A stretch of DNA of 63,362 nucleotides, counting the filler, from Candidatus Methanoxibalbensis ujae (GTDB lineage: Archaea > Halobacteriota > Syntropharchaeia > Alkanophagales > Methanospirareceae), in assembly GCA_026134085.1 (NCBI GenBank). It is 3 parts of 3 records of this genome, joined end to end, with 100 filler letters (N's around TTAATTAATTAA, not from the genome) between each part and the next. Parts side by side here need not be neighbours in the genome. Positions count along the whole stretch, not along the records: positions 42,560 to 63,362 come from JAOQIN010000032.1; 2 more parts are not named here. The stretch is one strand, 5' to 3'. Below the pieces are notes generated by a model, which did not search any database, had not been told where the DNA came from, and worked only from the letters and a program-made list of their open reading frames with translations. Position 1 is the first letter of the stretch; each line of letters starts with the position of its first letter. Positions 21,542 to 56,394 of this stretch are shown one piece after another. The position numbers were made by a program, and so were the translations under genes.

Positions 21542-21649
21542 TGAAGTCCTGGAGATTTCTTTCATGGCATGCTCTACTTGGCAGCTTCTATCATTATGGA
21601 GGGTTTTGGGATGCGCTCTAAGTAAAATAATCCGCATTTCAAATTGCCC

Positions 21650-21957
21650 CTATTTTTCCTTGCAAATCTCCTCAAAATCCTCAAAAGCCTCCTTAACTAT
21701 TTTGTCTTTACCGAAAGGCAGAAATATGACGCAATATGGAAAATCGCTCCATTCTTTCAAGTGATTTTCCCGACTTTTTCGGAAAGAGGATTTGTTAAAG
21801 TCCCGGGACCGATCTCAAGAACTTCAAAGCCTTTATTCGGAATACCATATTCGCCATTTTTCTCCCAAATCAGTCATTCCACTTGCAACGCTCTGAGTGG
21901 ATTTTATTTGAAAATCCCTGTCGTAAGTTTGGACTTTCTAATTCTCTCACTTCTCAT
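21650..21957 (-). pseudogene. Degraded class I SAM-methyltransferase fragment
   Basis: Residual frame EVLEIGPGTLTNPLSEKVGKIT*, flanked by stops and frameshifts. Confidence 0.45.
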
Positions 21958-22071
21958 CTTCTTCCCCTTATCCTACCGGTTTATCCGATATTTCGGCTCT
22001 CTTCTTTTTAACCATAGGATATCTTTTTGTAAAAAAAGCGGGGCGTAGGTGCAAATCACTGCTCTTCTGCT

Positions 22072-22078
22072 GTTATAC
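22072..22078 (-). other. attC-like R'' box (GTATAAC on the minus strand) just after the MTase stop; rest of the site degraded
   Basis: Plus-strand CTGCTGTTATAC resembles the CCGCTGTTATCG ends of the other inter-gene sites. Confidence 0.4.
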
Positions 22079-22084
22079 ATTGTT

Positions 22085-23023
22085 TCACTCATCATTTGTT
22101 TTCATGAATTTAAATTTAGTATTATATTTTATTATACTATTATATTCCTTTATCCTTCTCTCTGCCAGTTTCACATACTCTTCTTCTATATCGTATCCTA
22201 TGTAGAGTCTTCCTGTCTTTATTGCAGCGATTGCTGTCTGTCCGCTTCCCATAAATGGATCCAAAACAACTTCACCCTCATAAGTATAAAGTTGAATTAA
22301 TCTGTATGGCAGCTCAACAGGAAAAGGAGCTGGATGTCCCACTTCTTTAGCTGATACAGCAGGAAACGTCCAGACACTCTTAGTAAACTCAAGAAATTCT
22401 TCCTTTGAAATTGTGCTTTTTCTTTTATTTGTATTCCCTCTTGAAAAAGTGCCCTTGGAGAACACCAAAATATACTCATGAATATCTCGCAAAGTTGGAT
22501 TTGCAGGGGAAAGCCAGGAACCCCACGCCGTAGATGGGCTCGCAGAAGATGCTTTATTCCATATAATTTCTCCTCTCATCAGGAAACCCAATTCAAACAT
22601 ATCTTTGGCAATAAATGCGTGAAGAGGGATGTAAGGTTTCCTTCCCAAATTCGCTATATTGATGCATGCTCTACCCCCAGGAACAAGCACCCTGTAAACT
22701 TCTTTCCACACTCTTTTCAGAAATTCCAGATATTCTTTGAGCGTGAAATCTCTATCATACTCTTTTCCCACATTATAAGGTGGTGAAGTTACCATTAGAT
22801 GAACGCTGTTATCAGGCAACTCTTCCATTTTTTCGGAGGACTTGCAAAATATTTTATTTAAAAATTGAGGAGGAATGGGATTCTCCACATATTTAACTTT
22901 CTGTTCCTTAGGAAGTCCTTCATATAATTTGCTTGTGTAAAAAAGCGTGGAATCATGATTTATTCTGCCAGGAGAACCAAAGGAACTTGTTTTAGTTCTC
23001 CTTTTTCTTCTGTTGTTTCTCAT
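22085..23023 (-). CDS. N4/N6 DNA methyltransferase (beta class), intact
   Basis: VTSPPY precedes HPAPFP and VLDPFMGSG. Confidence 0.92.
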   Translation of the reverse strand: MRNNRRKRRTKTSSFGSPGRINHDSTLFYTSKLYEGLPKEQKVKYVENPIPPQFLNKIFCKSSEKMEELPDNSVHLMVTSPPYNVGKEYDRDFTLKEYLEFLKRVWKEVYRVLVPGGRACINIANLGRKPYIPLHAFIAKDMFELGFLMRGEIIWNKASSASPSTAWGSWLSPANPTLRDIHEYILVFSKGTFSRGNTNKRKSTISKEEFLEFTKSVWTFPAVSAKEVGHPAPFPVELPYRLIQLYTYEGEVVLDPFMGSGQTAIAAIKTGRLYIGYDIEEEYVKLAERRIKEYNSIIKYNTKFKFMKTNDE

Positions 23024-23026
23024 TTT

Positions 23027-23245
23027 AATCTTCCCTCCAGTAATCCACCCATCTTTTATAGGGTTATAGTCTATTTTTGTCTTCTGCCAGTTTATGATAA
23101 CTAGATAAATTATCCTTAACTAAACTTGATAAAGCTTCTTTGGTTATCTCCACACCTCTTGGTTTTGTTCTTGGTTTGTGAATTTTTATATATTTATCCC
23201 TCACAATTTGCCAAAGATTTCCTCTTGGGCTTCTAATGGTTAAAT
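23027..23245 (-). pseudogene. C-terminal remnant of a ThaI-like Type II restriction endonuclease
   Basis: Fragments KYIKIHKPRTKPRGVEITKEAL and INWQKTKIDYNP in different frames, directly upstream of the MTase; family recalled from memory. Confidence 0.55.
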
Positions 23246-23261
23246 TTTAATAGACCCGTAA

Positions 23262-23317
23262 AATGCGAAGTTCGGCTTTGCCTGAGAGCGAAGCATAGCT
23301 GTATTCCGCTGTTATCG
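23262..23317 (-). other. Partial attC-like site
   Basis: Shares TCCGCTGTTATCGGAAGT exactly with the 51302-51375 site and TTCGGCTTTGC with the 24873 site. Confidence 0.6.
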
Positions 23318-23326
23318 GAAGTTTGC

Positions 23327-24213
23327 TTATTCATGATGATCTCCTCTTTCTTGATATTCAAACAATGTAAGAGAGAATTTTTGGTTATTTACTTTTCTAT
23401 GTCTTCCAACAAATTCTCCTTTTTCCTTCCTTTCCTTAAAAGTTTTCCTGACCACATGTCTTGATAGTTCTTCCTCAACTGCCTTAATCTCATTTCTATA
23501 ATTTTTCAACCTTTTAATGCTGTATTCTACATATTCTTTAGATATGTCGATTCCTATGTAATGATAACCCAATATTTTGGCAGCAACAAGAGTTGTACCA
23601 CTACCACAGTACGGATCTATTATAATTCCATCACTTTTCTCATCCATAATGGAGTAAATAGCTCTTACGGGTAATGCAATAGGAAAAGGAGCGGGATGCG
23701 GATTATTGTTTTCAGGTGGGAAACGCCAGATAGATGTAAGCAACGCATGCCTCGGTTTTAATTCTTTCCCAATGATATTTTTCCCTTCCGGTTTATACAA
23801 CCAATATATGCGCTCCTCTACCTGCCAAAAACGCCATCCTCTTATATTTGCAGCGATCATCCTGTCCCAAATTATCTCCTGCCTTATCACCCATTTTGTT
23901 TTTCTTAACCAATCCATAGGATGTAGCATAAATCCCCTTTCCCATCGTAGTTTATGATTATAGAAAAAAGAGCCACCTGGTTTAATAACTCTGTAAAGTT
24001 CATTCAATACTTCAATTTGAATCCTTTGGTATTCTTCTTCTGGAAGATTATCAGTTGCACCCGTGTATACTACTTTGTCCACCAGCCATCCTTTCTTATT
24101 TTCTCTTTTGTTATATGGGGGGGATGTTATACCCATGTCTAATTAGTAGGCAATTTTTTTAGAGTCTCCAGAGCATCGCCGCATATCACCTTATCAAGGA
24201 AATCCTCAATCAT
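23327..24213 (-). pseudogene. N4/N6 DNA methyltransferase (beta class), frameshifted near the N-terminus
   Basis: MIEDFLDKVICGDALETLKKLPTN* then GITSPPY...HPAPFP...DPYCGSG in another frame (break at ~24140). Confidence 0.8.
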
Positions 24214-24845
24214 CCGGAGCCACCTCCATTAAAAATCTATAAAATCCTTTAACAATATTATTTCTGTATTTTTCAAGTTCTGATTTAGAGAGACAAAAAA
24301 CCACTCTTAGATCATCACATTCCATAAAATCTCTATAATCAAAATTTGCACTCCTGAGAAACTGTCCTCTTACATCTCCATTGGGAAATCTCCTATTCAA
24401 TTGTTGCCTTAACTTTGAAGCAAAAGAATTACACCTGAAAGGAAACTCCAAAATATATATTAGCCTTCCATCAACAAATCCACTAACTGACATATGTAGG
24501 TTTTCTTTTAAATCTCTTTGCAAATGTTCGTGAGTATAATCAAATTTCCACCGCCATTTAATTTGCGTTTCTTATCACTTCTTACATGTTTTGTTTTTGC
24601 TTCACACATTAGAGGTCTTCCATAAACATTCTGTTTATATCTATTATAATTTTACCTTCTGTACGAGTATAACCCGCAATTGTCACTGTCAGATCATAAT
24701 GTAGAGGAATTCTTGTCATTTATGTACATTGTAATTAGGTCTATCAAAACGGCTTGTTCTTTGATTTTCCTAAAAGATACTCATTCAGTTCTCTGTCTGA
24801 CTTCGTGGCATATATTCTTATTATTTCCGCCAACTCTTTGTTCAT
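24206..24845 (-). pseudogene. Putative Type II restriction endonuclease, multiply frameshifted
   Basis: ATG at 24845; CEAK (ExK-like) fragment; C-terminal ORF 24206-24523; stop overlaps the start of the MTase. Confidence 0.55.
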
Positions 24846-24872
24846 TTATTCACCTCCCACAAGGCAAATTTA

Positions 24873-24947
24873 TGCTAACGAGTGTCGGACATACGAATTT
24901 CGGCTTTGCTGCCAAGGCGGAGCGTAACCGTGTGTTCACAGGCGATG
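24873..24947 (-). other. attC-like site (R' GTTAGCA; R'' degraded)
   Basis: TGCTAAC followed by inverted repeat GGACATACG/CGTGTGTTC; lies between two RM gene pairs. Confidence 0.6.
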
Positions 24948-24952
24948 TCATA

Positions 24953-26213
24953 TTATTTCCCCTTTCTCAAAATGACTATGTATTCGTGATTCATTGTCGT
25001 ATCTGTTACTCCAGCTATATTACTCGGACTATTTCTTTTAGGCATCCTTTTATTTGGAATTTCTCTTATTATAGTTTTTATATGCTCAAATCCCTCTCTT
25101 TCAAAGAACTCTCTTGTTATCTCATCATTTGGTATTTCAATTCCTTTTACCCTCCTGTTGCCCACCACATAAGCTACTATTCCTCTTTTTTTTAACTATT
25201 TTAGAAACATTGTTTATTGATCTTTCATAATCTATGTAAAAAGATATTACATCATACACTCTGTTTTTGTCTATATCTGCAATCTTTGATATTACCTCAT
25301 CAAGAGGTTCAAAATCAAAACTTTTAATTACTCTTCTCCTTAAGCCTCCTATACCCTTTTTATCAACTTCGTTTAATTCTTCAAATCCCAACCATTGATT
25401 GCTCAATCGTGAAAATTGTCCATAAGCCACGGTGGTTCTTGAATCTCCGTGGGGAGGTGAAGTTATTATTATATCTACACTTTCCGATGGGAGTATGCTT
25501 TCAGGAATTTTATAAACTGTGTTAAAATCATAGATTTTAGATTCTGCTTTGTTGTTTTTTAAACGGATATACTCAGCCATTCCGTTTCTGTTCCGTATTA
25601 ACTTATCAATCATTACGGACAAAACATTTGGATTGAATTTTTCTATTTGCTTTTTGGTCATTCTGTATAACTTGAATTCACTGTTTCTTGTCAATGAAAC
25701 CTCTCGCACAGTCTCACTAAATGCCACCTTAAAAAAGTCCTGAATGTCTTTATCTTTAATCTGTTCAATATATTCTTTAACGACAGCAAGCCAATATTGG
25801 GTTTCTTCTTTAAACCAATAATCAATATTCTCAAAATTGGGGATAGCAGGTTTGGTTTTTATTTTTCCCAGTTGTATTGAAAATACAAAGTCATTAAAAT
25901 CTTCCAAATACAAATCCAATGATTTGAGCGGGATCACTGTTGTCTTAGCTTTTGCAATTAATCGTGCTAATGGATTTATATCTGTGCCAATAGCATTTAT
26001 TCCTCTTAGATTTGCTTCTACCAATGAGGTCCCTGTGCCACAGTATGGATCGAATAGAAGTTTAGCCTCTTTCCCGAACTCGTCTAAAATTCGTCCGGCG
26101 ACCTGAGGGATCATCATTGCTGGGTACGGATGGAAGCAATGAGTATACTGTTTTGTATTTGCGGTTCGAAAATCCCAAGTCTCATCTCTATATTTTTTTG
26201 TCATTATTTGCAT
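24953..26213 (-). pseudogene. MvaI-like N4-cytosine methyltransferase, frameshifted
   Basis: FHPYPAMMIP, DPYCGTGTS, TSPPH (canonical SPPY altered). An A8 run at 25186-25193 shifts the C-terminal VVGNRRVKG...NHEYIVIL out of frame. Confidence 0.8.
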
Positions 26214-26214
26214 T

Positions 26215-26905
26215 TCAAATAAGCCTCCTTTTATGCTTGTAAAGTTCCATTAAATCTTTTTCTTTGATACGAAATGCGGTTCCTCTGTTTCTTAGAGCTC
26301 CACTCTCTTTGCATTCTGATATCAATACCTATTAATGAATTTTTAAATGCTTTCAAAAAATTTCGAGGACTTGGATCCGTCAATAAATAGGCTTCGTTGT
26401 AGTGGAAATATTCCTCACCCTGTTCAACTTTTCTATCAGCTATAATTATCAACAATCTGCTTAACTTTGTCATAAATGTTCCAACTATAACATAAACGTC
26501 CCATGTAGCTAAGATTTCTTTGTTTTTGAGTCAACTAAATGGATAGTGTTTTTGTTTTCATCCACATCCAAGAATATTCCCTGTGGAATTGGTCTTCCAT
26601 ACCGTGTTTTTTAGAGCATATCTCCCTTTTTCATCAATACAGCCGTACTTTTGTACGAGTTCTTTCTGTTTAATATGCCAAACTCCACGATTGAAGGTAA
26701 AAAGTGTAATTAAAGATTGAGAATCTCTCCTTATAGTTTTTATTTCAACCCTCCCCCCGATATCTGGGATCGGAATATTATTCTCCTGCACACCAAAAAG
26801 AGTTTCAAAAGTATATCCAATTCCTGTGGAACCCCTCCTCAGTGATTGGATGAAACCTTTATTTTTAATTTCTTGAAGTTTGGTTGTTACCTCTTTCAAT
26901 CTCAT
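26215..26905 (-). pseudogene. MvaI/BcnI-family restriction endonuclease, frameshifted
   Basis: RRGSTGIGYTFETLFG..ENN..PD..VEIK..LITLFT in one frame; EEYFHY, IDIRM, RNRGTAFR in others. Confidence 0.82.
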
Positions 26906-26939
26906 CTTCTCATCTACTGCCTCTCTGGCGGTCAGTTTC

Positions 26940-27000
26940 GCCCAACTGGCTAACTGGCGGGTATGCCGAGCGAAGCGCAGCTGAGCCAGATATTTCCGAC
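26940..27000 (-). other. attC-like remnant (R' GTTGGGC) upstream of the MvaI-like pair
   Basis: Plus-strand GCCCAAC followed by GC-rich sequence containing GCGAAGC, as in the other sites. Confidence 0.45.
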
Positions 27001-44360: not shown

Positions 44361-46199
44361 ATGTCGGTGCTGTGGATAATCGGCGTTTATGTGTTTTTGA
44401 GTTACTGGCTCATTGTTCTGATTTTGGAGAGAAAAGGAATTCTGAAGCGATATAACATATCATCATTCGGTCCTGTATTGATGATAAGGACGAACAGAGG
44501 GCAGAAAATATTGGATTTGCTTGCCGAAGGTCGTTTTCGCAGAATTTTCTGGCGTATCTACGGGAATGTAGGGGTTTCACTCATGATAATAGCGATGATC
44601 GTGATGTTGGTATTGCTTATCTCAATATCTCTCAGGATTCTTTTCGCACATTCACCTCATGTGCCTGCTGCATACAACAAGCCGCAGAACATACTGCTCA
44701 TACCCGGACTGAATGAGTTCATACCGCTGTGCGGATGGATAGGTCTGATAATCGCACTTATGGCTCATGAGATATCGCATGCAGTGCTGTGCAGGGCTGA
44801 AGGAGTTCGTGTGAAATCCATGGGATTGCTCGTCGCATTGATACCAATAGGTGGATTCGCAGAGCCCGACAGCGAGCAGCTCTTCGGAAAGAAGAGCACC
44901 GAAAAGGGGGAAGAGAAAGCCGATAATGGGGAAGAAGAAAAAGAAAAGGAGGAGAAAGGTGAAGAGAAGAAAAAGGGTGATGGAAAAGAGAGGGAATCCA
45001 AAACAAACAATGATATTGAGAGAGTGGATGAGAGGGAAAGCAGAAGTAAAAGAGAAAGAGGAAGAGAAAGTGAAAGTGAAAATGAAAATGAAAATAAAAA
45101 TAAAATAAAAAAAGAAAAAAAATATGAGAAAGTTGCAACGGCAGAGGAGCGAACGAGAATTCTTGCGGCTGGAATCACATCAAACTTCTGCATTGCAATC
45201 ATTTCTTTCTTGCTTTTCTTCGCATTCCTTTCTGCTTTTAAGCCCGTGAGTGATTTCGCACCATACATATATGAGGTTGCGCCAGGAAGTCCTGCGGAAA
45301 AAGCTGGATTAAGCGCTGGAATGCTCATAACTGCTGTTGATGGACATCCTGTAGATAGTATTGATGATCTAAATATAAGGAAATCGCATGTAAATCTTAC
45401 TGTTATTGATAAAGATGGGAAAATTCAAGAAATTTTTGTGGATAACATATGTAAGGGCGTTTACATAATTGATGTTATAGAGGGATATCCGGCGCAGCGC
45501 GCTGGTATTGAAGGAGGAATGTGCATCACGGCGATAGACAACATCACTCACCCCTCATTTGAGGACTTCATTGCGTTCATGAACAGGACCCGGCCCGGTC
45601 AGACACTGCGTGTTCGTTTATGTGACGGCGGAGAGGAGAAAGTTTTTGTTGTGAACCTTACTGCCGCGCCTCATGGTGAGGAGAAAGGATTTCTCGGAGT
45701 CATTGTTGCGAACATACCACTTGGAATAGCTGTCGGATTTCCTTCAGATGCATATCTTGAGAGTCTTCGCTATATATTTTTGTCTATTTTTGCGCCTAAA
45801 TCGCTTGAGGAATGGTTTTATGTCTGGCCTGTGATACTCACTTTGCCCCTTTATCCGCCTCCTGAAGGCTTCAACAGTTTTTACCCCATGCTCTCTCAAT
45901 TTTACACACTTTCTGCATCGCTTCCGCCGGCGATTGAGGACGCATGCTTTTTCATTGCGGATGTGCTGTTCTGGACGGCATGGATAAATCTGCAGGTTGC
46001 GCTTTTCAACTGTCTGCCCGCGATACCTCTTGATGGAGGTCATGTTTTCAGGGAGGTGATGAAGTCAGCACTTTTTTTTGTGAAGGAGAAGCGCAGAAGA
46101 GAGCGCATCTCAATGGTTATTGCAGGCGTTCTGAGCATCTCAATATTCCTCCTCATAATTTTCACATTTCTGCGCTCCTTCCTCATAACATATCACTGA
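44361..46199 (+). CDS. Site-2 protease (M50) with two PDZ domains and a charged low-complexity insertion
   Basis: HEISH, GGFAEP, AAG..SN, two SPAEKAG/YPAQRAG PDZ motifs, NCLPAIPLDGG. Confidence 0.92.
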   Translation: MSVLWIIGVYVFLSYWLIVLILERKGILKRYNISSFGPVLMIRTNRGQKILDLLAEGRFRRIFWRIYGNVGVSLMIIAMIVMLVLLISISLRILFAHSPHVPAAYNKPQNILLIPGLNEFIPLCGWIGLIIALMAHEISHAVLCRAEGVRVKSMGLLVALIPIGGFAEPDSEQLFGKKSTEKGEEKADNGEEEKEKEEKGEEKKKGDGKERESKTNNDIERVDERESRSKRERGRESESENENENKNKIKKEKKYEKVATAEERTRILAAGITSNFCIAIISFLLFFAFLSAFKPVSDFAPYIYEVAPGSPAEKAGLSAGMLITAVDGHPVDSIDDLNIRKSHVNLTVIDKDGKIQEIFVDNICKGVYIIDVIEGYPAQRAGIEGGMCITAIDNITHPSFEDFIAFMNRTRPGQTLRVRLCDGGEEKVFVVNLTAAPHGEEKGFLGVIVANIPLGIAVGFPSDAYLESLRYIFLSIFAPKSLEEWFYVWPVILTLPLYPPPEGFNSFYPMLSQFYTLSASLPPAIEDACFFIADVLFWTAWINLQVALFNCLPAIPLDGGHVFREVMKSALFFVKEKRRRERISMVIAGVLSISIFLLIIFTFLRSFLITYH

Positions 46200-46437
46200 G
46201 AACGCAAACGCCGTTTGCATCACAGCCGCAGTGGTGGGAGGATGGAATGGTGGGTGAGGCCCTGATTTACTATGAAAACAAAAGCAATAATAATAATAAA
46301 AAATTAATAAAATTAAAATATAAAATAAAAAACAACCTGTGCATTATTTGCTTCAGCATTATTGGCTCCGTCCTGAAACTCTGATCTCACGAATGAAAGC
46401 GAAAACAGCAAAATATGAGCATAATATACAGATACAT

Positions 46438-47463
46438 ATGTCATGGGTGGAGGAAGTGAGAGATGCGCTTGACAGTTCACTGCACAGACGTGAGGGTGCC
46501 TGTGGAATATGTCACGATGTTCTTGAGATGATATGCAAGAAAGGAGGAAAAGCAGTCACTTACGAACAACCTGACGGTGTTATTGCGAAAATTTATGACA
46601 ATAAGGAGGAAGTTGTGGGTGAAGGCAGGGACATAGTGAGTGCATCTGCAATACTTTCAGCGGAATTAGATGCGGGAGTGATTCCAGAGCCTTTTGCTTC
46701 AGAGCTTTCTGCCGTCGTCACGAGCGAGGAGGATCTTCGAAGGACGGGTGAAATCTACGGCTACGGTCGTGTGATCACGCCTGCGAGCATTGCTCTTGAG
46801 GAGGCGAAGAAAATCGGAGGCAGAACGGTCATTCGCAGGGAGGGCATAGGCGTCGTCGCCCAAGCGTTTGACGCTCATGGTAACACATTCTTCAAGTCGC
46901 CAGTGTGTTATTGTCCCGTCTGTGCGGTTGTAATTGGCGCATCTCGGAACGAGGAGCTTGCAGAGAAAATAAAAGAGAGGCTCGCAGGCAAGAGGAACAC
47001 CGGAAAAATAAAGTGTGAGCAGGGAGTTGAGAACATCTACGAGATGGAGAACGGCACTGTTCTCGTCTCAATTAAGCGAGGCAATGAAGTGCTCGCAGAA
47101 AAAGTGCTCGCCTGCTGCATGGTCTACGGCATGGTGAAAGCGGAGGTTGTTGCGGGATTCTCACCAAAAGAATCCGCTCAACAGTTTAAAACTTATTGCA
47201 ATATATGCCCCTTGAAACACTGTTGGGTCGGAAAGTCCATAGGTTCGCTCGGAAATATCGTTCTGAACAGGCTTTCAGAGATCAATGTTGAGGTTGAGGT
47301 CTCAATTGATGGATTGATAAGGGCGAAAATTCCCGGAGATGGAGTGATTGAGGGCAGAGGAACACTCTGCACGCTATCTGCTCTCACGAACATGCTTCTC
47401 AGGGAAGATGCTTTCAAAATACTGCGACCCAAGCGGGGTTCTGCTCCCGAACACGAGCTCTGA
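46438..47463 (+). CDS. Hypothetical Cys-rich protein with about four internal structural repeats
   Basis: Long open frame; CGICH, CYCPVC, CC, CNICPLKHC motifs. Confidence 0.75.
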   Translation: MSWVEEVRDALDSSLHRREGACGICHDVLEMICKKGGKAVTYEQPDGVIAKIYDNKEEVVGEGRDIVSASAILSAELDAGVIPEPFASELSAVVTSEEDLRRTGEIYGYGRVITPASIALEEAKKIGGRTVIRREGIGVVAQAFDAHGNTFFKSPVCYCPVCAVVIGASRNEELAEKIKERLAGKRNTGKIKCEQGVENIYEMENGTVLVSIKRGNEVLAEKVLACCMVYGMVKAEVVAGFSPKESAQQFKTYCNICPLKHCWVGKSIGSLGNIVLNRLSEINVEVEVSIDGLIRAKIPGDGVIEGRGTLCTLSALTNMLLREDAFKILRPKRGSAPEHEL

Positions 47464-47674
47464 GAGTCAGTTGGGCGAGGCATCGGCGTTGAGTGGGAAA
47501 GGAGAAATGAGGTGGCTATGTGGCGGCGATAGTGGCGGGAGAGGATGGAATAGTGGCGAGAGAGGAGGAGAGGGGAGGAAGTGAGGGTGAAATTGGAGAG
47601 AAGAATGGAAGAGCGCAAGGGGAGTGAGTGTGAGCGTATGCGTATGATGATGTATGGGAGATGGGAGTGTGAGT

Positions 47675-48233
47675 GAGATGGAGATGGATGAGATGAAGAA
47701 GGAGTTTAATGAGCTTCTGGAGGATTTGCGTGAGATTCATTCGGATTTCAGGGTGATCTCCACGGAGAAAGTTGTGGTGGCGGAGTGGGTGCGCTGGAAG
47801 TGCATGTTTGGATGCAGGGCATACGGGAAGCATTTGAACTGTCCGCCATATTGCGATTGTTGCGAGATTTAAAGCTGAGCCCAACTATGAAGTGACGCCT
47901 TCACGCATACATCATTTCCTTTGGGATGCGATAAAGAATATGTATGACAAGATGTTTGAGATGGAGAGGCACGCATTTCTGTCGGGATACTACAAGGCGT
48001 TCGCGCTTTATGCTGTGCCATGCGCCTACTGCGACCCATGCATTCCAGAAGTGGAGGAGGACATTGATCACACAGCGAAGCGTCTCTGCCCGTTCCAACA
48101 TAAAATGAGACCTTCAATGGAAGCAACTGGCATAGATGTGTTTCAAACGGTCAGAAATGCAGGCTACAAAATAAAAGTGCTGACTTCCCCCTATGAGGAT
48201 ATCTTCTTCTTTGGACTCCTTCTGCTTGAGTAA
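47675..48233 (+). pseudogene. DUF2284-like metal-binding protein, split or frameshifted
   Basis: VRWKCMFGCRAYGKHLNCPP in one frame; CAYCDPC..CPF..RPSMEATGIDV in another. Confidence 0.75.
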
Positions 48234-49126
48234 AGGCTGACTCTCTTTCTGCGTTGCATGAATCAAAATTCCCAGAACTTGCTTCTGCTGAAGCTGCAGT
48301 CCCTCCACGCAGTGACTTCCGCTTATGTGTTCAGGTAAGTGTTCGGGAGAGGCAGGTAATGAACGAGAAAAAGGAGTTGCCCCCATGACATCCTCACGCC
48401 TGTAAACTTCCTTCTGCCTCACAGGTAGCTAAGCATGCGATTGCTACATGTCATATTTCATTTCATTCGTCACGGATGGCTATTTATTCCTTCCGATGCG
48501 GGGGAATGCCATATGCCATTTTGAGCAGCACCGTCTTAGCTCCGAGAGGAGGGATGCTATAAACCAAGCAGGACGGATGTGAAGCAAGGTCATACTTCAT
48601 CGGCAGACCTGCTGAAAGCGATGTCGAGCTCGGTTTAACAGAAGTGCAGGAAGTTCTGAGGAGATAAAGATGAGCAAATTGCCTGATGAGAGAGAGGACG
48701 CAGGGACAAGAAGATGAGGAGGAGGGTAAATGAAGAGGAAGGGCGATGAAATCGCAGAGGGCGTCTCGGAATATGGCGAAGGTGCTCCTGGAGGCTCTAC
48801 CGTTCAGACAATATCTGCAAGAAGCACAAACGCAATCACCAGAGATTTTGGAAAGTTCTGTAAGGGTGGTGCGATTTTCATGTCTGACGGCTACTATTTC
48901 CTGTATTCAGATGCGGAGATTAAGAGTTTTATTCTCCCGCAATCTCTCTCATCTCATTTGCTCAAAAACGCTTTATAACTCTCAAATTTTGACAAAGAAA
49001 TGTTAAAGTAAGGAGGAGTAGTAACAGATACAGCTATTATTTCATGCTCTTTCATATTCTCCTCACCAAAAATCAGCTCAATGTTTTGTTCATTACAGTA
49101 TTATGTCTGCCACCTCACAGAATTTC

Positions 49127-49218
49127 ATATAACGTTTGCGGATAAAAGAAGTTGGTGAGCTGGCGAGCCAATTTGGGTGAAGACCTGCAAGGGCTGAACC
49201 GTTTATCTACTGTTAGGC
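49127..49218 (-). other. Complete attC-like recombination site (92 bp)
   Basis: Minus strand reads GCCTAAC...AGATAAA...TTTATCC...GTTATAT (R''-L''-L'-R'). Confidence 0.75.
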
Positions 49219-49254
49219 GACGGAACGGAGTGAAGCGAAAGTGCAACGTCCTCC

Positions 49255-50075
49255 TAAGTAATTTTGGCGTCTACCATATTTCCCCATTATTCAATAATTT
49301 TTTCACTTGTTGATAGATTTCTAATACCAAATCTCAATAAGAGTAATACTGCAGTAACAATGATTATGGCGCTCATAACAGATGCAAGAACAAACATATC
49401 TAAAGAGGATACAATATTCCATAATACGTGCCAGATAATCGTCATAAACACGCTTCCTTTTGTACTATTGAAGATAAAAGTAAAATGAATTGAACAGATA
49501 AAAGTCCCAAATAAAAGTCAATCAGCATATCGATGCTAAAATCAAATCTGTAAAAAAACATCGGAAAGTGCCAGAGAAACCAAAAAATTGACAATATAAA
49601 AGTTGCAGTCAAAGCATTAAATTTTTTCTGCAAATAAGGCAACGCAAATCCTCTCCAACCAATTTCTTCAAATATTCCATATGAAATCAAAGGCAATATC
49701 CATAAAAAAGTGGAAATTGGAGAAAAGAGATTATCTGTAATAAATTGTCTAAAATCTAACCAACTACCGGATATAAAATAGCCTATTGGCAGAGATACTA
49801 ATAAAAGAAAAATAGGACTAATGGCAACTAATATCCATCCGAATCCGACTTGATACTTAATGATTTTGTTTTTTAGTCTTGAAATACCCCTATTTTTTTC
49901 TGTTATATAAATCATTATGAAAGCAGAGATTGATGGACCAAACGCTCCAAGAAAATGCCAATTTTCAGAAATAGTGTGTGTAATAATTGGCAACAACAAA
50001 GTCCATGTAATTACATATGCAATTATAAAGTAACTTACAAGTGGATTCCTTTTAAATAATAATTTAATTATATTA
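49255..50075 (-). pseudogene. CPBP/Abi (CAAX) intramembrane protease, no clear start, frameshift at ~49500
   Basis: EEIGWRG, FLWH; C-terminus IIWHVLWN in another frame. Confidence 0.75.
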
Positions 50076-50078
50076 TCC

Positions 50079-50213
50079 TCAATCGAGCTCTTCTATTACA
50101 TTACGAGGTAAAACAGGCATCATTGCACCTGTATCAATGACCGCTTCGACCTCCCTTGTTTTCGTTGAGTCAAACAGGCTCGTGAATTTTACCTTCTCTA
50201 TCACCTTTCCCAT
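50079..50213 (-). pseudogene. Truncated clan AA (retropepsin-like) aspartyl protease
   Basis: MGKVIEKVKF...EVEAVIDTGA..VLP then an early stop; GGAGG upstream. Confidence 0.65.
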
Positions 50214-50268
50214 TTCAATCCCTCCTTGTATTTTAGATGTTGTAATTTAAATACTCTGTTTTGCAATG

Positions 50269-50318
50269 GCGTATATGCTCCAAGCACGGAGCGAAGCGGA
50301 GCACATATTCTGTTAGAC
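50269..50318 (-). other. attC-like site with an internal deletion
   Basis: R'' GTCTAAC (plus-strand GTTAGAC); ATATGCTCC/GGAGCACATAT inverted repeat; GCGAAGC motif. Confidence 0.55.
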
Positions 50319-50339
50319 GCTGTTTGCCATTAAACTTAA

Positions 50340-51233
50340 CTACTGAGATTGATTATCCCACACTTCGATCTTCTCGGTGTTTATTAGCTTCTTCTTCATA
50401 ATCAAGACCAATATAAAGAAAGTTAAGGATATAAGAATCATCCTCAGGTTTAATAATTCATTTACTCCTGTAACTGTTTGCATGTGTACAAAGTTCAGAA
50501 CTGTATTATTAAACGTATGGGCAAACCAAGAGCCCCACAAACTATTGGTTTGTATATAGATCATGCCCCATGTATACCCCATAAGAGTGGCTAAGAGTAT
50601 ATAGCCCAAAGAAATTAAAGAGGCATTAAATATGTCCATCTGCCCATCTAATACTGATTTTATCGGCCACACTATATGCCATATGCCAAATAGAAGTGCT
50701 TGAAATAAATTAGCTTTAGTCAGTGTTATCTTACTCCCCAATAATGGTAACATTACTCCTCTAAATAAACCTTCTTCCGCAAATGAATTCACTACATTAC
50801 CCATAACAAGCCAAAATGCCAGCACTGGTCCTCCAGTAACAGCCCATCCTGCATTTAAACTATGACCCATTGGTATGAATCTAAGTACTGGATCATATCC
50901 CTCAACTGATAGATATAGAAATTCTGAGGAGTATGCAATTGTAAACGCTGCGATAATTGGAATTAACCCTATCATCATATTAAATCTCAAATTATTGAAA
51001 TGAAAACCGATGTTATCTATACCTTTTCCTGCTAAATACAGAAAGGTAAGTATTAAAAGAATAACACAAATCTTTGATACAGCAATTTCTCCCCAAGCAT
51101 CCTCTGTCTGCAAAAAGAATATATCTGCCGTTCTAAAGACAAAGGCTATGAGAAACAGAGAAATGCAAATTATTATGGGTTTTTTCATTATACTATTTTT
51201 GATTTGGTCCATTTTATCCTCCTCATCTATCAC
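50340..51233 (-). CDS. CPBP/Abi (CAAX) family intramembrane glutamic protease
   Basis: EEGLFRG, FGIWH, HTFNN, multiple hydrophobic segments. Confidence 0.88.
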   Translation of the reverse strand: MIDEEDKMDQIKNSIMKKPIIICISLFLIAFVFRTADIFFLQTEDAWGEIAVSKICVILLILTFLYLAGKGIDNIGFHFNNLRFNMMIGLIPIIAAFTIAYSSEFLYLSVEGYDPVLRFIPMGHSLNAGWAVTGGPVLAFWLVMGNVVNSFAEEGLFRGVMLPLLGSKITLTKANLFQALLFGIWHIVWPIKSVLDGQMDIFNASLISLGYILLATLMGYTWGMIYIQTNSLWGSWFAHTFNNTVLNFVHMQTVTGVNELLNLRMILISLTFFILVLIMKKKLINTEKIEVWDNQSQ

Positions 51234-51301
51234 CTATCTTGAAACTTAACTAGTTTAGACGCCTTCCAAATGACACAAGACGTAACCATAAGGCAAATGG
51301 C

Positions 51302-51375
51302 GTATAACGTTTTGCTGACATACGAAGTTCGCTTGCGAATTTTGGCGGAGCGTGGCCGTATGTCCGCTGTTATCG
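51302..51375 (-). other. Complete attC-like site (74 bp)
   Basis: Minus strand reads CGATAAC-AGCG-GACATACG...CGTATGTC-AGCAAAAC-GTTATAC. Confidence 0.78.
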
Positions 51376-51395
51376 GAAGTCCCGCATCTCATCTA

Positions 51396-52430
51396 TTATA
51401 CCTCCAGTATATCACCTCTAAAACCAAATCTTTCGAGGAGGCGTCTGGCATTATTTATACATCCAGCAGTGCTATAATGTACTTCGATATATAATCCATT
51501 GGATAATCTTTTTGGCGCTCTAAAGCTATCTCCATATCTGTGTTTGGGCTCTGTATTTATCAAGTGGCGTTTTCTTCCGATTGGTATTGGGCAATCACTT
51601 ACTTTTAGTTTTCCTTTCCGTATAAGCCACTCTGCTGTGTTTGTTAATATTTCATAGGAATTTCTTATCTCAAAAACATCGCTACCTATTTTCATTTTTC
51701 TTGGCTGTCCTCCTCCCCACATAGTTGTTTCTGGCGGAGATATATACTCAGGTTCTTCTATTGGAGTGATCAATTCTTTGATTCTTTCTTTGAGAAAATC
51801 CTCAATTTCTATAGGTTCAAATTCAAATTTATAATCAGAATATTCTTCTTTAATTAATTTCTCAAAAACAGGAATTAGTCCTTTAATAATTTTTTCTGGT
51901 TCATCGACCAAAGATTGCCAAATTTCGTCCAGTATTTGGAGTTTCTTTATAAGTTTCTCGATATTATCGATATTATCCTTAGAAATAGTACACAATCTTC
52001 TTATGCTCGATGTTAATTCATCACTTTCGATGTCTGTTTTCCAAACTATTCTCTCAGACATCGTAGTTCCCTCCTGAAAAGCTCTAAAAAGTATCCAAAT
52101 AACTCCATTAGTTAAAACTCCATATTTCATACCTTCACCAAAACAATATTTTGCTAATTGGCGAATAACATCCTTTTGTTCTATATCTACCGATAATTTT
52201 TTTGCTTCAATGAACAGAACTTTCTTTCCATTTTTTAAAAGGGAATAATCAGGGATACCTTCTTCTGTTGAGATATTCGGTTGCACCTCTTCCGGATTCT
52301 CGGGATTCCATCCCAAAGCCCTTAATATTGGATTTACTATCTGATTTCTGACTGCCATTTCGTTTTGCTCATATAAAAAGCTATACTTTTTCATTCTCTT
52401 AACAACCATTTTTAATGTTTCTTTAAGCAT
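51396..52430 (-). CDS. HsdR_N-like PD-(D/E)xK nuclease fused to a C-terminal putative DNA-recognition domain
   Basis: PILRALGW, PDY, FIEAK, QLAKY, LTNG..W. Confidence 0.8.
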   Translation of the reverse strand: MLKETLKMVVKRMKKYSFLYEQNEMAVRNQIVNPILRALGWNPENPEEVQPNISTEEGIPDYSLLKNGKKVLFIEAKKLSVDIEQKDVIRQLAKYCFGEGMKYGVLTNGVIWILFRAFQEGTTMSERIVWKTDIESDELTSSIRRLCTISKDNIDNIEKLIKKLQILDEIWQSLVDEPEKIIKGLIPVFEKLIKEEYSDYKFEFEPIEIEDFLKERIKELITPIEEPEYISPPETTMWGGGQPRKMKIGSDVFEIRNSYEILTNTAEWLIRKGKLKVSDCPIPIGRKRHLINTEPKHRYGDSFRAPKRLSNGLYIEVHYSTAGCINNARRLLERFGFRGDILEV

Positions 52431-52461
52431 CTTCTTCGCCCCCTATTTTTTGTGGGATTTC

Positions 52462-52546
52462 GGATAATGTTATGAGGATATGTGAAGTTTGCTGTAGACA
52501 AATTTGGCCGTAGCCGAAGGCGAAGCCACATATCCTCCTGTTGTTC
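52462..52546 (-). other. attC-like site
   Basis: Perfect 11-bp inverted repeat GAGGATATGTG/CACATATCCTC, bounded by GGATAAT and GTTGTTC. Confidence 0.68.
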
Positions 52547-52590
52547 AAGTGCGATAGCACCGAAGTGGAGAGTCGGACGAAGTGGGCGCA

Positions 52591-53523
52591 TCACTTTTCA
52601 CCCACGATATTCTTGTATGCTGCTTCGAATAAAGGATCAAACTTTTTCAAATCGATGTCAGATGATTCAACTTTGTATAAAACCTGTTTCCATTGTTCTT
52701 CATATCTGTATGGCTCATATCCCTCGATTTTAATTTTATCTGAAGCTTCTTTCGGTATTTTAAAAAATAGACAGAAGCTCTTAGAACCTATGAAAGTTAT
52801 TCCAAACACTATTGGAAAACCATATTTAAATGAGACATAACCTTTATTATTGCTTCTTGTTAGATTCCATCCCCTGGATTTTATGTAACCCTCTATATTG
52901 TTAGCTAACTTCCAGAATTCCTCTGCAGATTTGGGATTATAGTGCTCCTTGTAATATTTCTCATCGTATTCTCGGATAGTACTTACCGGTTTGACAGGTT
53001 TTTCTTCTTCTACTAACACCTTATTCAAAAAGATGTAATCATTTTGTCCATCGCTAAATTTTTTAAATTCTATGAGTTCAACAGGATAAGTTATTCTGTA
53101 GATAAGTTTTTGAACCGATGGTTTAAAGGAAGGAGCAATTATCATAATTTTTATACTGAACTCTTTTTCCCAATCAAAAGTAAAATCTTCAGGTTTGTTT
53201 TTCTGTTCCAGCCATATGCTTTTAATAGCATCAGGATGGGTTTCAACCCAAAGGGCATATTTCATTACTTGTGGAATGACACTTTCATCTGCCGTCTCGT
53301 CTTTGATTTCAATAACTAATATATTATTTTCATTATCAATGCCCACTAAGTCTATTCTTTCATCTCTTGAATATGTTTGTAATTGGCGTTTTAAGAGAAA
53401 TACGTCAGGTAGTATATTCTCAGTTTCAAAAATTAGTTTTTCTATAGTTTCTTCTGGATGGACTTCTTGTTCATTTAAGTTCTTTGTCCCCTTTTTATTA
53501 TCAATTATTATTAAATTTGCCAT
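52591..53523 (-). CDS. NucS/EndoMS-C-like PD-(D/E)xK nuclease with a C-terminal DUF5655-like domain
   Basis: E..IE, RIDLVGID, VIEIK, QVMKY motif. Confidence 0.72.
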   Translation of the reverse strand: MANLIIIDNKKGTKNLNEQEVHPEETIEKLIFETENILPDVFLLKRQLQTYSRDERIDLVGIDNENNILVIEIKDETADESVIPQVMKYALWVETHPDAIKSIWLEQKNKPEDFTFDWEKEFSIKIMIIAPSFKPSVQKLIYRITYPVELIEFKKFSDGQNDYIFLNKVLVEEEKPVKPVSTIREYDEKYYKEHYNPKSAEEFWKLANNIEGYIKSRGWNLTRSNNKGYVSFKYGFPIVFGITFIGSKSFCLFFKIPKEASDKIKIEGYEPYRYEEQWKQVLYKVESSDIDLKKFDPLFEAAYKNIVGEK

Positions 53524-53540
53524 GTTACTCCCTCCTTACG

Positions 53541-53625
53541 CGACCACGAAGCCCGGCGTATCCGAAGTTCCGAGCGAGGAGTTTGAACAGAGGCGATAGC
53601 GAAGTCGGATATGCACCTGTTATCG
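53541..53625 (-). other. attC-like site
   Basis: GCGTATCCGA/TCGGATATGC inverted repeat, ending ACCT-GTTATCG; other core box degenerate. Confidence 0.65.
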
Positions 53626-53673
53626 AAGGGAGAGCCACGATAGTGGCGGAGCGTTTCGCTTGGTGGCTTCATT

Positions 53674-54312
53674 TTAAATCCATCTTTTTGTATATTTTGA
53701 GTAATTAAATTCATCTATTAATTTTAGAAAAGTTTTATTTTGATAATTTAATGGATTAATATAATCTCCCACTTTCTCTGCAAATTCTTTCATCAATTTC
53801 ATAAATCGAATATATTTTTCAGCGGGATTGTTGTTGTAATAGCAACCATATGCTTTAGCTATTTGATCATCCCAAAGCGGGAAGAAATTTGGTGCTAAAA
53901 GATGTAAAGCCTTCGCGACTGCTACAGGACTTTTTCTCCCCTTCATATTACCTGAAGCAATTCGTAAGGATTCCATAAATTCGGTGAATATCAATTTTAT
54001 GTCTGATTCATCAGATTTAGAGAGTTCGGTTATATTCCTGTTCCTGAATTTTTTAAGTTTTTCTAAATTATTCTTTATACATTTCTCAAGTTTATCAAAA
54101 TCAAAATTTCCATACCTATAAAATGCCTGATTCCAAGTTAGTAAAAGTACGCCCAACCCATCGGCCATATCTGATGGATTACCCCAAAAATGACGGACAA
54201 GAAATGTTGCTACTCTATACATTGCATCTCGTTTTTCATGTTTTTCAAATTCTTCAATTCCCTTAATGAATTCTTCCTCAGTCGGGATATGAACTTCATT
54301 CATATTTTTCAC
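53674..54312 (-). CDS. Hypothetical cassette protein
   Basis: AT-rich 212-aa ORF with LLLTWN and VAVAKALHLLAPNFFPLWD (possibly HhH-like), bounded by att-like sites. Confidence 0.7.
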   Translation of the reverse strand: MKNMNEVHIPTEEEFIKGIEEFEKHEKRDAMYRVATFLVRHFWGNPSDMADGLGVLLLTWNQAFYRYGNFDFDKLEKCIKNNLEKLKKFRNRNITELSKSDESDIKLIFTEFMESLRIASGNMKGRKSPVAVAKALHLLAPNFFPLWDDQIAKAYGCYYNNNPAEKYIRFMKLMKEFAEKVGDYINPLNYQNKTFLKLIDEFNYSKYTKRWI

Positions 54313-54338
54313 TTCCTTTTGCTGTCAAGCGAAATGTC

Positions 54339-54373
54339 GCCTAACTCGTTCATATCCGGACAGTTCGGATATG
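54339..54373 (-). other. Head-of-array recombination core (GTTAGGC), candidate attI or truncated attC
   Basis: Perfect GTTRRRY just upstream of the first cassette ORF; adjacent CATATCCG-N7-CGGATATG inverted repeat. Confidence 0.5.
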
Positions 54374-55014
54374 CTCCCAAATGAGAAGCATATGCGAACC
54401 ATTCGCATCCCTCTGGACGACCATCGTTCTTTGTTTTTATCCTCATGTTTCACCTCTTTTTAAATATCGAATCTTCGCTGTAGGGGACTTCCCATTTTCC
54501 TTTTGGATTCCCTCTTCTTCCAGATATCATCCTTATCTTCTTTATTAACTCCTGAAGGAATGCGAATTATAACCTTGTCGTTTTTCCCAAACTCAACAAA
54601 CTCAATTTTCACCGCAGGGATTTTGCCTTTCCCCGCCATTTTATGGCAGTAAATTTTCCTATTTTTAAATATTTTGCGGTCTTCTCAAGTGGTCATTATT
54701 TCACCAAAACCTTTTTGAGTTTAACACCCTTTGAGTCTGCCAAGCAAATGTGGATTGGCACATATTTCAACCGCGATGACTTCGCAGGTGTCGTGAACCG
54801 ACAGTGGCGCCTGGTGTGCTATGGTTCAATGCCCGGGCGTCATGCCGTAAATTGCTTTTACAGCATGAGCGGAAATGAATGTTGTGGAGACACAAAACGA
54901 TGTTAAGACTTTGACAGGCAGAGATGCTGCCCCATGTCTTTGACAGTTAGACACTCTATTTTATCAGAAAAATATCAGAAAAAATATGGAAGGATCAGGA
55001 GATTATAGAAAGCC

Positions 55015-56394
55015 TCAGTCATTGAAGCCCATGCAGGTTGAACAGTCGTGGAGTTTTTTAAGCAGTCTCGGCGGTATTATCTGATGTCTGATAAGGTCTC
55101 CGAAAGTCTCCCTCTCTCTTATCAGCTCTGTTTTTCCGTTGCATACGAGGACCTCAGCGCATCTCGGTCGCATGTTATACTGCGAACTCATTGAGAGTCC
55201 GTAAGCACCGACATTCATGATCACGAGAATTTCTCCTCTTTTCAAACGGGGCAGCTTCCGATGCTCGCCGAGTACATCTCCCGACTCACAAAGAGGACCG
55301 ACTATGGTATATTCCTCAAACTCATCAGTCCTGTTGTTTTCTGCATCTGTGCGCATGCAGCTCGCGGGAATTATCTCATGATATGCGCCATACATTGCGG
55401 GTCTTATGAGAATGTTGAACCCCGCGTCCACCGCTGCAAAATTTCTCTCGGCGGTCCGCTTGACAGATTGCACCTTTGTCAGCAATATGCTCGCGTTTCC
55501 CACGATTGAGCGTCCGGGTTCAAGAACAAGCTTCACGGGCCTTCGCAATTTTGCAACTCTGAACGCTGCTTTCAGCGCATCTGCGAGGTCATGAGGTGTT
55601 GGCTGTACATCATCTTCACTGTATTTTATTCCCAGACCTCCGCCGATATCTACAAAATCTATGTCATACTCTCTCTGAAGTGACGAAGCAATGCGCAACA
55701 TTTTTTCTGCCGCCTCTTGAAAAACGCTCACATCAAGTATCTGAGAGCCAATATGGCAGTGAATTCCTCTCAGTTTAATCAATTTCATCAGTGATATGCG
55801 CCTGAATGTGTTGAAAATGTCCGCTGCAGGTATCCCAAATTTTGAGTTTTTGAGTGCAGTCGCGATTTTAGGATGTGTTTTCACGGAGATATCAGGATTC
55901 ACGCGCACCGCAACATGCACTCTCTCACGCTCAACAGGCAATGATGGCTGATCTGATGATGGCTGATCTGATGATGGCAGCTGAAGACCATGAGCGATTT
56001 CTGAGAGAGCTTCTGCCTCGTCAAGAGAGTCCAGGCACAATAGAACGCCTGTTTCCACTGCAAGTCTCAGCTCATCATCTGTCTTCGCATTTCCGTTGAA
56101 TATTATTTTGTCGGAGGGGATTCCGGCGAGCATTGCAGCTTTGAGCTCACATCCTGACACCACATCAGCGCCAGCACCCTCCTGAGCGAGTATTCGCAGT
56201 ATTGCAATGCTTCCGTTCGCCTTAACCGCATAACAGATATCAACATCATAGACAGAGGAAATCTCATCCTTGAACTCGCTGAACGCACGAACATATGCGC
56301 GGTAGTTCTCGCGCACGATATTCTCATCTGTGACTATCAGCGGTGTGCCGTATTTATCTGCAAGCTCTTCAACATCAACGCCCCCAAAATACAT
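55015..56394 (-). CDS. lysA: Diaminopimelate decarboxylase
   Basis: GTP, YAVKAN, HCHIGSQI, DIGGG, EPGR, GPLCESGD, GAYG. Confidence 0.95.
   Translation of the reverse strand: MYFGGVDVEELADKYGTPLIVTDENIVRENYRAYVRAFSEFKDEISSVYDVDICYAVKANGSIAILRILAQEGAGADVVSGCELKAAMLAGIPSDKIIFNGNAKTDDELRLAVETGVLLCLDSLDEAEALSEIAHGLQLPSSDQPSSDQPSLPVERERVHVAVRVNPDISVKTHPKIATALKNSKFGIPAADIFNTFRRISLMKLIKLRGIHCHIGSQILDVSVFQEAAEKMLRIASSLQREYDIDFVDIGGGLGIKYSEDDVQPTPHDLADALKAAFRVAKLRRPVKLVLEPGRSIVGNASILLTKVQSVKRTAERNFAAVDAGFNILIRPAMYGAYHEIIPASCMRTDAENNRTDEFEEYTIVGPLCESGDVLGEHRKLPRLKRGEILVIMNVGAYGLSMSSQYNMRPRCAEVLVCNGKTELIRERETFGDLIRHQIIPPRLLKKLHDCSTCMGFND

Follow-up and report, generated by a model that had tools for sequence, protein, structure and literature searches.

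The stretch of DNA analysed here, referred to as the window, comprises 63,362 nucleotides from Candidatus Methanoxibalbensis ujae (assembly GCA_026134085.1) and consists of three contigs joined via N spacers. One of these, contig C26, contains in its entirety an array of gene cassettes that is flanked by lysA (55015-56394) on one side and a DUF2284 gene on the other. From its head, the array comprises an internally deleted tyrosine recombinase gene, an attI-like insertion site, and a series of cassettes and attC-like sites, all on the minus strand (Table 1). The host archaeon is likely a methane oxidiser of the ANME-1 group; its assembly is 89% complete, and comparisons within its order draw on 68 genomes from two families. 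A first-pass annotation, made from the sequence alone, had described the region as a cassette array with attC-like sites, and all of the coordinates and quoted cores that it gave are found in the sequence. Its description of the sites as GC-rich holds relative to the cassettes (GC content 0.45-0.57 versus 0.31-0.35) and fails relative to the flanking genes (0.47-0.48).

Table 1. Features of the array, from head to distal end, in window coordinates (E, expectation value; foreign-only model, site profile built from other genomes)
Feature	Coordinates	Strand	Evidence and remarks
Tyrosine recombinase 5' remnant, frameshifted	54465..54700	-	82% identity to G026:C10:40850-40616, 75% to L140
Recombinase 3' tail and spacer	54417..54464	-	54464-54338: 72% identity to L140 and L144 (3' end with attI-like site)
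attI-like insertion site, putative crossover G|TT at 54345/54344	54339..54416	-	Flank-model E 3.2e-8
Cassette 1, 209-212 aa protein, DUF6308-like lead	53674..54312	-	1590 homologues
Outer arm left of the R'' end of cassette 1	53653..53662	-	Complementary to 54326-54334; core beyond it deleted, per L164 alignment
attC-like site, truncated: R'' and both L arms, without R'	53555..53625	-	Foreign-only model E 1.4e-7
Cassette 2, 310 aa NucS-like PD-(D/E)xK protein	52591..53523	-	Pfam NucS_C E 0.0017, below cut-off
attC-like site with ATT for GTT in the R' core (mutated)	52462..52546	-	E 1.1e-13; 11-bp stem without bulge
Cassette 3, 344 aa HSDR_N-type nuclease domain protein	51396..52430	-	Pfam HSDR_N E 2.5e-12
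attC-like site, intact	51302..51375	-	E 2.1e-13; fold
Cassette 4, 297 aa CPBP (Rce1-like) intramembrane protease	50340..51233	-	Pfam E 9e-18
attC-like site, half-deleted: R'' and a short stem remain, without inner spacer or GTT	50268..50318	-	E 0.19, left half only
Cassette 5 remnant, retropepsin-like protease cut off after 44 codons	50079..50213	-	Pfam E 0.012
Cassette 6, CPBP gene with a frameshift, lacking its head and joined to cassette 5 by a deletion	49285..49999, ends approximate	-	Pfam E 1.6e-9; two reading frames
attC-like site, intact, terminal	49127..49218	-	E 3.5e-12
Putative further cassette, truncated head	48950..49126, end approximate	-	Start codon and short frame after the last GTT

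At the head of the array, two blocks of a recombinase gene and its 3' flank are preserved on either side of an internal deletion. The 5' remnant encodes a small helix-turn-helix-like start and a HARP-like domain (both labels are leads only), and it shows 82% identity to a recombinase frame of 414 codons in another genome (G026:C10), in the 5' part of that frame. The sequence at 54434-54338 is 79% identical to the site directly behind that gene, and a Thermodesulfobacterium locus (L140) is matched in the same two blocks, at 75% and 72%. Alignment with full-length homologues places the deletion junction near 54465-54470, with ~830-870 bp, the entire catalytic core, gone. L033, a near-identical strain that has the lysA flank in common with the window, shares frameshifts; its sequence runs into the recombinase body at the junction, and its contig stops within that body. 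A second copy of the same deleted allele lies at a contig end of the present assembly (C42:13646-13951, 96%) in a different upstream context, and the deleted form has itself been duplicated or moved. The first-pass annotation had reported no integrase in the window and had read position 54339 as a bare head core; instead, a recombinase remnant (54417-54700) stands directly upstream of an attI-like site that scores E 3.2e-8.

The attI-like model was built from the 3' flanks of 41 foreign recombinases. It identifies four places in the genome at E<0.05, the head of the array among them, and none at this threshold in the reversed genome. When 56 attI-like sites are aligned, the left part is conserved and the sequence becomes variable from exactly after G|TT, as expected for an insertion site beside its recombinase. 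Other attI-like sites in this genome accompany further traces of the family. The locus at G000:C7:15390-18760 (L001) contains a tRNA-Arg, a broken 3' recombinase piece of the same family, an attI-like site and three attC-like sites, and is a second decayed platform. At C1:59990-65640 and C4:40444-40650, attI-like sites are found with the last bases of a recombinase gene or none, and the C1 site heads four attC-like sites.

The attC-like sites were scored with an nhmmer profile built from 21 sites, all of other genomes, which avoids circularity. Its matches on the minus strand extend over 52461-52545, 51301-51380, 49125-49222 and 53554-53624, and its best match in the reversed window has an E of 0.61. 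Four of the five palindromic sites proposed at first are recovered in this way (E 1e-13 to 1e-7); the fifth, a half-site, scores only E 0.19. Each had been taken for an R''...R' unit, which holds for the two complete sites (49127-49218 and 51302-51375), where both cores and paired, folding L boxes are present; one of the others carries an ATT core, and two have lost their right ends. In a contig of run X1, the cassette head next to 50268-50318 sits behind a complete GTT core. The R'' of 53555-53625 agrees with the start of cassette 1 at only two of seven positions and likely belonged to a cassette that has been lost. Folding energy beats that of shuffled sequences at two of the five sites (z about -2 to -3.7), the other three ranging from z -0.95 to +1.4. 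Folding energy alone is weak evidence, and the signal lies in the family model and in covariation. A generic repeat finder returned no clear family for the sites, Rfam gave nothing above the gathering score, and scans for sigma-70 promoters and terminators stayed at background (sigma-70 models do not cover archaeal promoters). A hand-made attC heuristic yielded 93 matches, mostly noise, and was set aside in favour of profile models.

The sites belong to a family that is widespread in the host order. Iterated on its own genome, the profile gives 66 matches at E<=1 and 49 at E<1e-3 on ~20 contigs, with a best match of E 0.068 in the reversed genome; in total, the genome holds about 27 site clusters or single sites. 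A covariance model trained on 24 sites, three of them from the window, detects the family in 64 of the 68 order genomes with at least 930 matches, up to 62 candidates having been scored per genome. Near class 1 integrons and Xer genes, the same model finds nothing convincing, its best match (E 0.01) lying beside a Chryseobacterium member of the recombinase family. The best sites consist of AAC, one base, a bulge-free stem of 10-12 bp, a variable loop, the stem partner, 4-5 bases and GTT. The two or three extrahelical L-box bases of canonical attC are missing from this helix, which runs unbroken for 9 bp (10-12 bp at the best sites); the bulges could be replaced by a small internal loop, also conserved, that lies further out. 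In the 24-site alignment, 95% of the cells are paired and 9 of the 14 pairs show compensatory changes. None of 500 shuffles, which keep kinship in, reached as high a stem covariation, and slid controls were 20-44% paired. The bottom strand provides the better fold in 68 of 73 sites, and mismatches in cognate stems are bottom-strand G.T in 40 cases versus 3. Elsewhere in the window, a second low-GC island (21542-26950, contig C25, minus strand) carries DNA methyltransferase-like genes and a restriction-endonuclease-like remnant, labelled by eye, together with a decayed site of the same family (24875-24950, E 0.015); it is likely another eroded cassette array.

The ends of the cassettes match across the genes that they enclose. 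The reverse complement of the R'' flank agrees with the start of its own cassette at 4.68 of 7 positions in 22 pairs from this genome (3.32 when permuted) and at 5.35 of 7 in 48 foreign pairs (3.51 when permuted), with p 2e-4 in both comparisons, the floor of 5000 permutations. In 11 cases versus 1 in this genome, and in 26 versus 5 elsewhere, the start of a cassette fits the R'' at its own far end better than the R' next to it. Within the window, the ends of cassettes 3 and 4 match, over 10 of 12 bases beyond the core and 15 of 22 bases, respectively. The ends of cassette 1 mismatch because its R'' core is deleted, as is seen from an intact cassette in a Nitrospirae metagenome-assembled genome (MAG; L164). 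There, a 69% homologue of cassette 1 is the first cassette behind a recombinase of the same family, begins with the same bases as in the window and ends in a matching R''. Cassettes 5 and 6 lack matched ends because of deletions. The array has lost at least one cassette at the cassette 1 end, and cassettes 5 and 6 are fused remnants. The proposal of a cassette-built accessory island with attC-type sites is supported.

The window remnant lacks the region of the I2 insertion that is specific to IntI, and for this reason the insertion was sought in relatives of the recombinase. The KG and RHSFAT motifs lie 74 residues apart in each of the 29 full rows of the family that were correctly picked, compared with 115 in IntI1, 77 in XerC and 81 in XerD; at 41 residues below IntI1, the full-length relatives lack I2. 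They match the IntI model TIGR02249 in two stretches, skipping model positions ~180-230, and the family passes the NCBIfam XerA_Arch cut-off (NF040815). The TIGR02249 cut-off is reached in 0 of the 68 order genomes and in 1 of 401 phylum genomes. In a quick tree of 23 rows (17 of 40 were dropped as mis-picked, partial or redundant), the family forms a clade of its own with an SH-aLRT value of 99, outside the grouping of IntI1 with the Halobacteriota IntI (97) and also apart from XerC, XerD and an archaeal XerA-like protein. The tree contains only two IntI rows and therefore does not fix the branching order. A XerA/dif resolvase is likewise a poor fit, given the separate clade and the several copies per genome (at least three in G026, for example). 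The best PDB sequence match of the family profile is VchIntIA/IntI4 (2a3v, E 1e-55). An N-terminal domain of ~65 residues is present in 61 of 78 assessable loci among the matches listed; weak matches and the secondary-structure order of a low-confidence model, compared with the HARP topology, hint that it may be HARP-like. An Atlas search of the N-terminal part returned leads under 0.9 only.

At least 79 loci of the recombinase family are found in GTDB, in taxa that include Methanophagales, Archaeoglobi, Altarchaeota, Thermoplasmata, Thermodesulfobacteriota, Nitrospirota, Spirochaetota, Bacteroidota and Bacillota; a phage collection adds three loci on viral contigs. For the analysis of position, 81 loci were used (79 from GTDB, among the matches listed, and two from plasmids). 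Downstream of these, 37 attC-like sites at E<0.01 lie on the same strand and none on the opposite strand (208 kb searched), and the corresponding counts upstream are four and none (369 kb). An attI-like site follows 48 of the 58 loci with at least 250 nt downstream, among the matches listed, a figure that is partly circular since 41 loci trained the model. Targeting of tRNA genes was considered as a general rule and dropped, as a tRNA directly adjoins the recombinase in 1 of 11 loci. At L160 and L173, a hairpin directly follows the attI-like site with no gene between, like an empty cassette, and L219 has a similar hairpin. Acinetobacter plasmids commonly carry a 55% identical, N-terminally shorter member, annotated as TnpF in one record (plasmid matches H13-H38).

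Our preferred reading, which we consider probable, is that the region is a decayed integron-like platform, composed of a recombinase that has lost its catalytic core, an attI-like site, and six or seven cassettes. As judged from sequence, the recombinase family is likely integron-like in function, yet it falls outside IntI, and the platform likely belongs to a second kind of integron. The first-pass annotation saw a cluster of attC sites lacking an integrase (CALIN) with standard attC architecture. That view gives way to a once-complete platform with a gutted recombinase, non-canonical in both enzyme family and hairpin geometry. With at least two attC within 4 kb and no adjoining IntI, the region formally qualifies as a CALIN, a label that hides the non-IntI recombinase remnant.

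Canonical integrons (IntI1 of class 1; VchIntIA/IntI4) share with this platform a tyrosine recombinase, an attI site, tandem single-gene cassettes, AAC and GTT cores, matched cassette ends and a bottom-strand folding bias. The present family differs from them in lacking I2, in its extra N-terminal domain, and in a gene that is co-oriented with the array and has attI at its 3' end, while in the present sites the first 9-12 bp of the stem are free of single bulged bases and the central spacer measures 1 versus 4-5 nt. Treponema and other spirochaetes have an integrase gene in the same direction as the cassettes too, in reverse-orientation integrons that are classed as IntI. A reverse integrase orientation is also mentioned in PMC9668308. 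Canonical attC sites have two to three extrahelical bases, as stated in passages of PMC11641012. According to passages of PMC7790495, the I2 helix docks these bases and blocks the second exchange, and is held necessary for cassette capture, having turned a Xer-like enzyme into an integron integrase. The same passages describe how, for CTX phage, an enzyme without I2 recombines a folded single strand in one exchange.

The missing bulges and the missing I2 are coherent with one another and have a precedent in CTX phage, from which we infer bottom-strand, single-strand recombination at G|TT. An intact enzyme would insert cassettes one by one at the attI-like site, cutting the folded bottom strand of the cassette hairpin without the I2 helix of IntI. 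Cassettes would pass through circular intermediates, and the folded single strand would be the true substrate, as the folding asymmetry indirectly suggests. One strand exchange may be followed by resolution through replication, as for CTX phage with XerC, and the HARP-like N-terminal domain may bind the junction between single and double strands. The present copy can no longer shuffle its cassettes unaided and is eroding through deletions at the hairpins.

A broader proposition stands evenly balanced in our judgement. The family may constitute a second, independent integron class across archaea and many bacterial phyla, in which a Xer-sized enzyme would recombine folded single-stranded cassettes without I2, at bulge-free hairpins and with HARP-like junction binding. 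Such a class could be the main means of gene capture in ANME-1, with cassettes shared with bacteria of the same sediment, and it may resemble the missing step between Xer and IntI.

The same platform might alternatively act on double-stranded, simple sites of the Xer/dif type with two strand exchanges, the hairpins being binding-site dyads. The attI-like core indeed resembles a dyad with a 7-nt spacer, the enzyme has a Xer-like length and passes the XerA_Arch cut-off, and R'' is the place of some breakpoints. For double-strand exchange the spacers normally have to match, however, and here the cassette sites differ in spacer both from one another and from the attI-like site. Such a mechanism would also give no reason for the long-range covariation of the stem or for the bottom-strand bias, and we regard it as unlikely. 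XerC, XerD and XerA with dif, and integrative elements exploiting Xer (IMEX) of the CTX-phage type, do resemble the present system in their Xer-sized catalytic domain and dyad core site. Compared with Xer/dif, the present family is a separate clade, and instead of a single housekeeping gene with one dif it has many copies per genome, scattered in location and each at the head of an array.

That a canonical IntI elsewhere serves an ordinary CALIN, with the head remnant as an unrelated neighbour, appears very improbable to us. Sites occur in 64 of the 68 order genomes and none of the 68 reaches the IntI cut-off; the remnant, the attI-like site and the first cassette abut as they do in full-length loci of many phyla; and the stems lack the bulged bases that IntI grips. 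This explanation draws on the canonical AAC and GTT cores and on the rare occurrence of canonical IntI in the order and phylum (L018, the one phylum genome above the TIGR02249 cut-off, and Data S1 and S3 of Ghaly et al., as they appear in PMC9668308). We give hardly any credence to the hairpins being dispersed repeats, terminators or repetitive extragenic palindrome (REP)-like elements that turn over by homologous recombination between look-alikes. The sites within a genome are alike, breaks at R'' and deletions of whole hairpins occur, and no excised circle is seen in contigs of four runs, all of which such repeats would explain. They would not explain why a cassette start fits its own far R'' over the neighbouring R', why sequence at the attI-like site starts to vary exactly past G|TT, or why the sites are strictly polar relative to the recombinase.

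Comparison of strains places the breakpoints only partly at the predicted crossover. Three related strains of another species (L035-L037) carry an array upstream of lysA, and two cassettes present in L036 are missing from L037, where the break falls at G|TT. The refuting outcome set out in the first-pass annotation was a combination of sites at background and breaks unrelated to GTT cores; the sites do score with the family model, and one break lies at GTT and two at or near R''. The variable cassettes of these strains encode a retropepsin, a nucleotidyltransferase/HEPN-like pair (by eye) and nuclease-like genes. Joints of excised circles were not seen in contigs of the four runs, which cannot show absence.

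Several observations weigh against the integron-like platform as we describe it. L036 lacks one L035 cassette and keeps the downstream hairpin body, with the break at or near R'', and contigs of runs X2 and X4 share cassette 2 and the truncated site with the window and diverge from it at the R'' core, 53622. These R'' breaks could be accounted for by an enzyme of lower strand selectivity that recombines the top strand, or by similar sites undergoing homologous exchange. The count of mismatches in cognate stems leans on one conserved position and on related sequences. The assembly contains no intact recombinase in searches with TIGR02249, PF00589 and the family profile, and the IntI-type enzyme with the specific insertion that had been suggested as a search target is likewise missing, with no protein of the assembly carrying an IntI domain. 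Recombinase sequence elsewhere in the assembly consists of the broken 3' piece on C7 and the deleted allele on C42; at 89% completeness, the assembly may lack an intact copy that the genome has. The closest full-length homologue (G026:C10) itself lacks the LGH motif and a normal C-terminus. The HARP label is weak (Pfam E 0.03-0.09; PDB 4o66, E 0.13), the predicted recombinase model is poor (mean predicted local distance difference test score, pLDDT, 55), and, among the matches listed, the attI-like site is kept in 6 of the 11 loci where no HARP part is detectable. A family site is found in just 16 of the 32 listed loci with at least 2 kb downstream (the model is ANME-1-biased), and a Clostridium plasmid member beside a transposase (L220) has no attI-like site. 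Finally, canonical IntI pieces are rare but present in the order (L018), and one complete integron is recorded for an ANME-1 MAG in Data S3 of Ghaly et al. (part of PMC9668308).

Ghaly et al. (2022) described archaeal integrons and CALINs, three ANME-1 MAGs included (PMC9668308). In the passages of that source on which we draw, the arrays resemble the present ones as cassettes in archaeal MAGs, mostly without an adjoining enzyme, with nuclease-type and membrane cargo and with a putative attI downstream of intI. The IntIs in that study had to carry the additional domain, which the present family lacks, and the L boxes of the nine attCs that it tested look bulged in the canonical way by eye (Data S9), whereas the present sites are bulge-free. 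For ANME-1, it lists attCs in three MAGs (PMC9668308), and the present family occurs in 64 of 68 order genomes, a different genome set. IntegronFinder recognises IntI by the extra domain (passages of PMC9024848), and because it keys on that domain, arrays with an I2-less enzyme would be filed as CALINs or missed. Some 'integrase-less' arrays may, this suggests, have a cognate enzyme that IntI-based searches skip. Our literature search, with most subscription journals outside it, turned up no account of cassette arrays whose recombinase lacks I2 or is fused to HARP. An I2-less family that heads true cassette arrays, with sites lacking the bulges that I2 grips, would make the account of IntI arising from Xer testable. 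The present locus is a dead copy, and its value is as a fossil and a pointer rather than as the best experimental substrate.

The cargo agrees with the initial inventory of two PD-(D/E)xK-type nucleases, two CPBP proteases, a retropepsin remnant and one unknown protein. The protein of cassette 1 has ~70% identical homologues in several bacterial phyla and an Atlas feature score of 0.98 to a cluster with 20% DUF6308; no PDB sequence matches it, and Pfam, NCBIfam and PADLOC offer no family with a useful E. Its occurrence in a Nitrospirae bacterium in the same first position points to a route of gene flow between archaea and bacteria. In PADLOC, cassette 2 strongly matches a candidate model, PDC-S18 (E 6e-125); the phage collection contains nothing matching this cassette. 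PADLOC otherwise gives weak type IIG matches for the cargo and none for the other three proteins; no model matches the CPBP proteins. A defence role is plausible for the nuclease cassettes, from the PDC-S18 match and the one HSDR_N domain. For the cassette 5 remnant, identity is 55-59% to the full genes found behind attC-like sites in L035-L037, and a copy on C59 shares 58%.

Beyond the array, the order of the flanking genes differs from that in a related species. In L034, L037-L039, L041 and L043, compared with window 44361-55015, a gene for an M50-type peptidase lies directly after lysA. In the window, this gene is ~9 kb from lysA on the opposite strand, and the platform therefore appears to stand at one end of an inversion. 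Short simple repeats occur by the flanking genes (window 47500-47700 and 55940-55980), and a 15-nt duplication inside lysA is absent from the alignments of relatives, as judged by length. Contigs of runs X1 and X2 vary in length at window position 47693.

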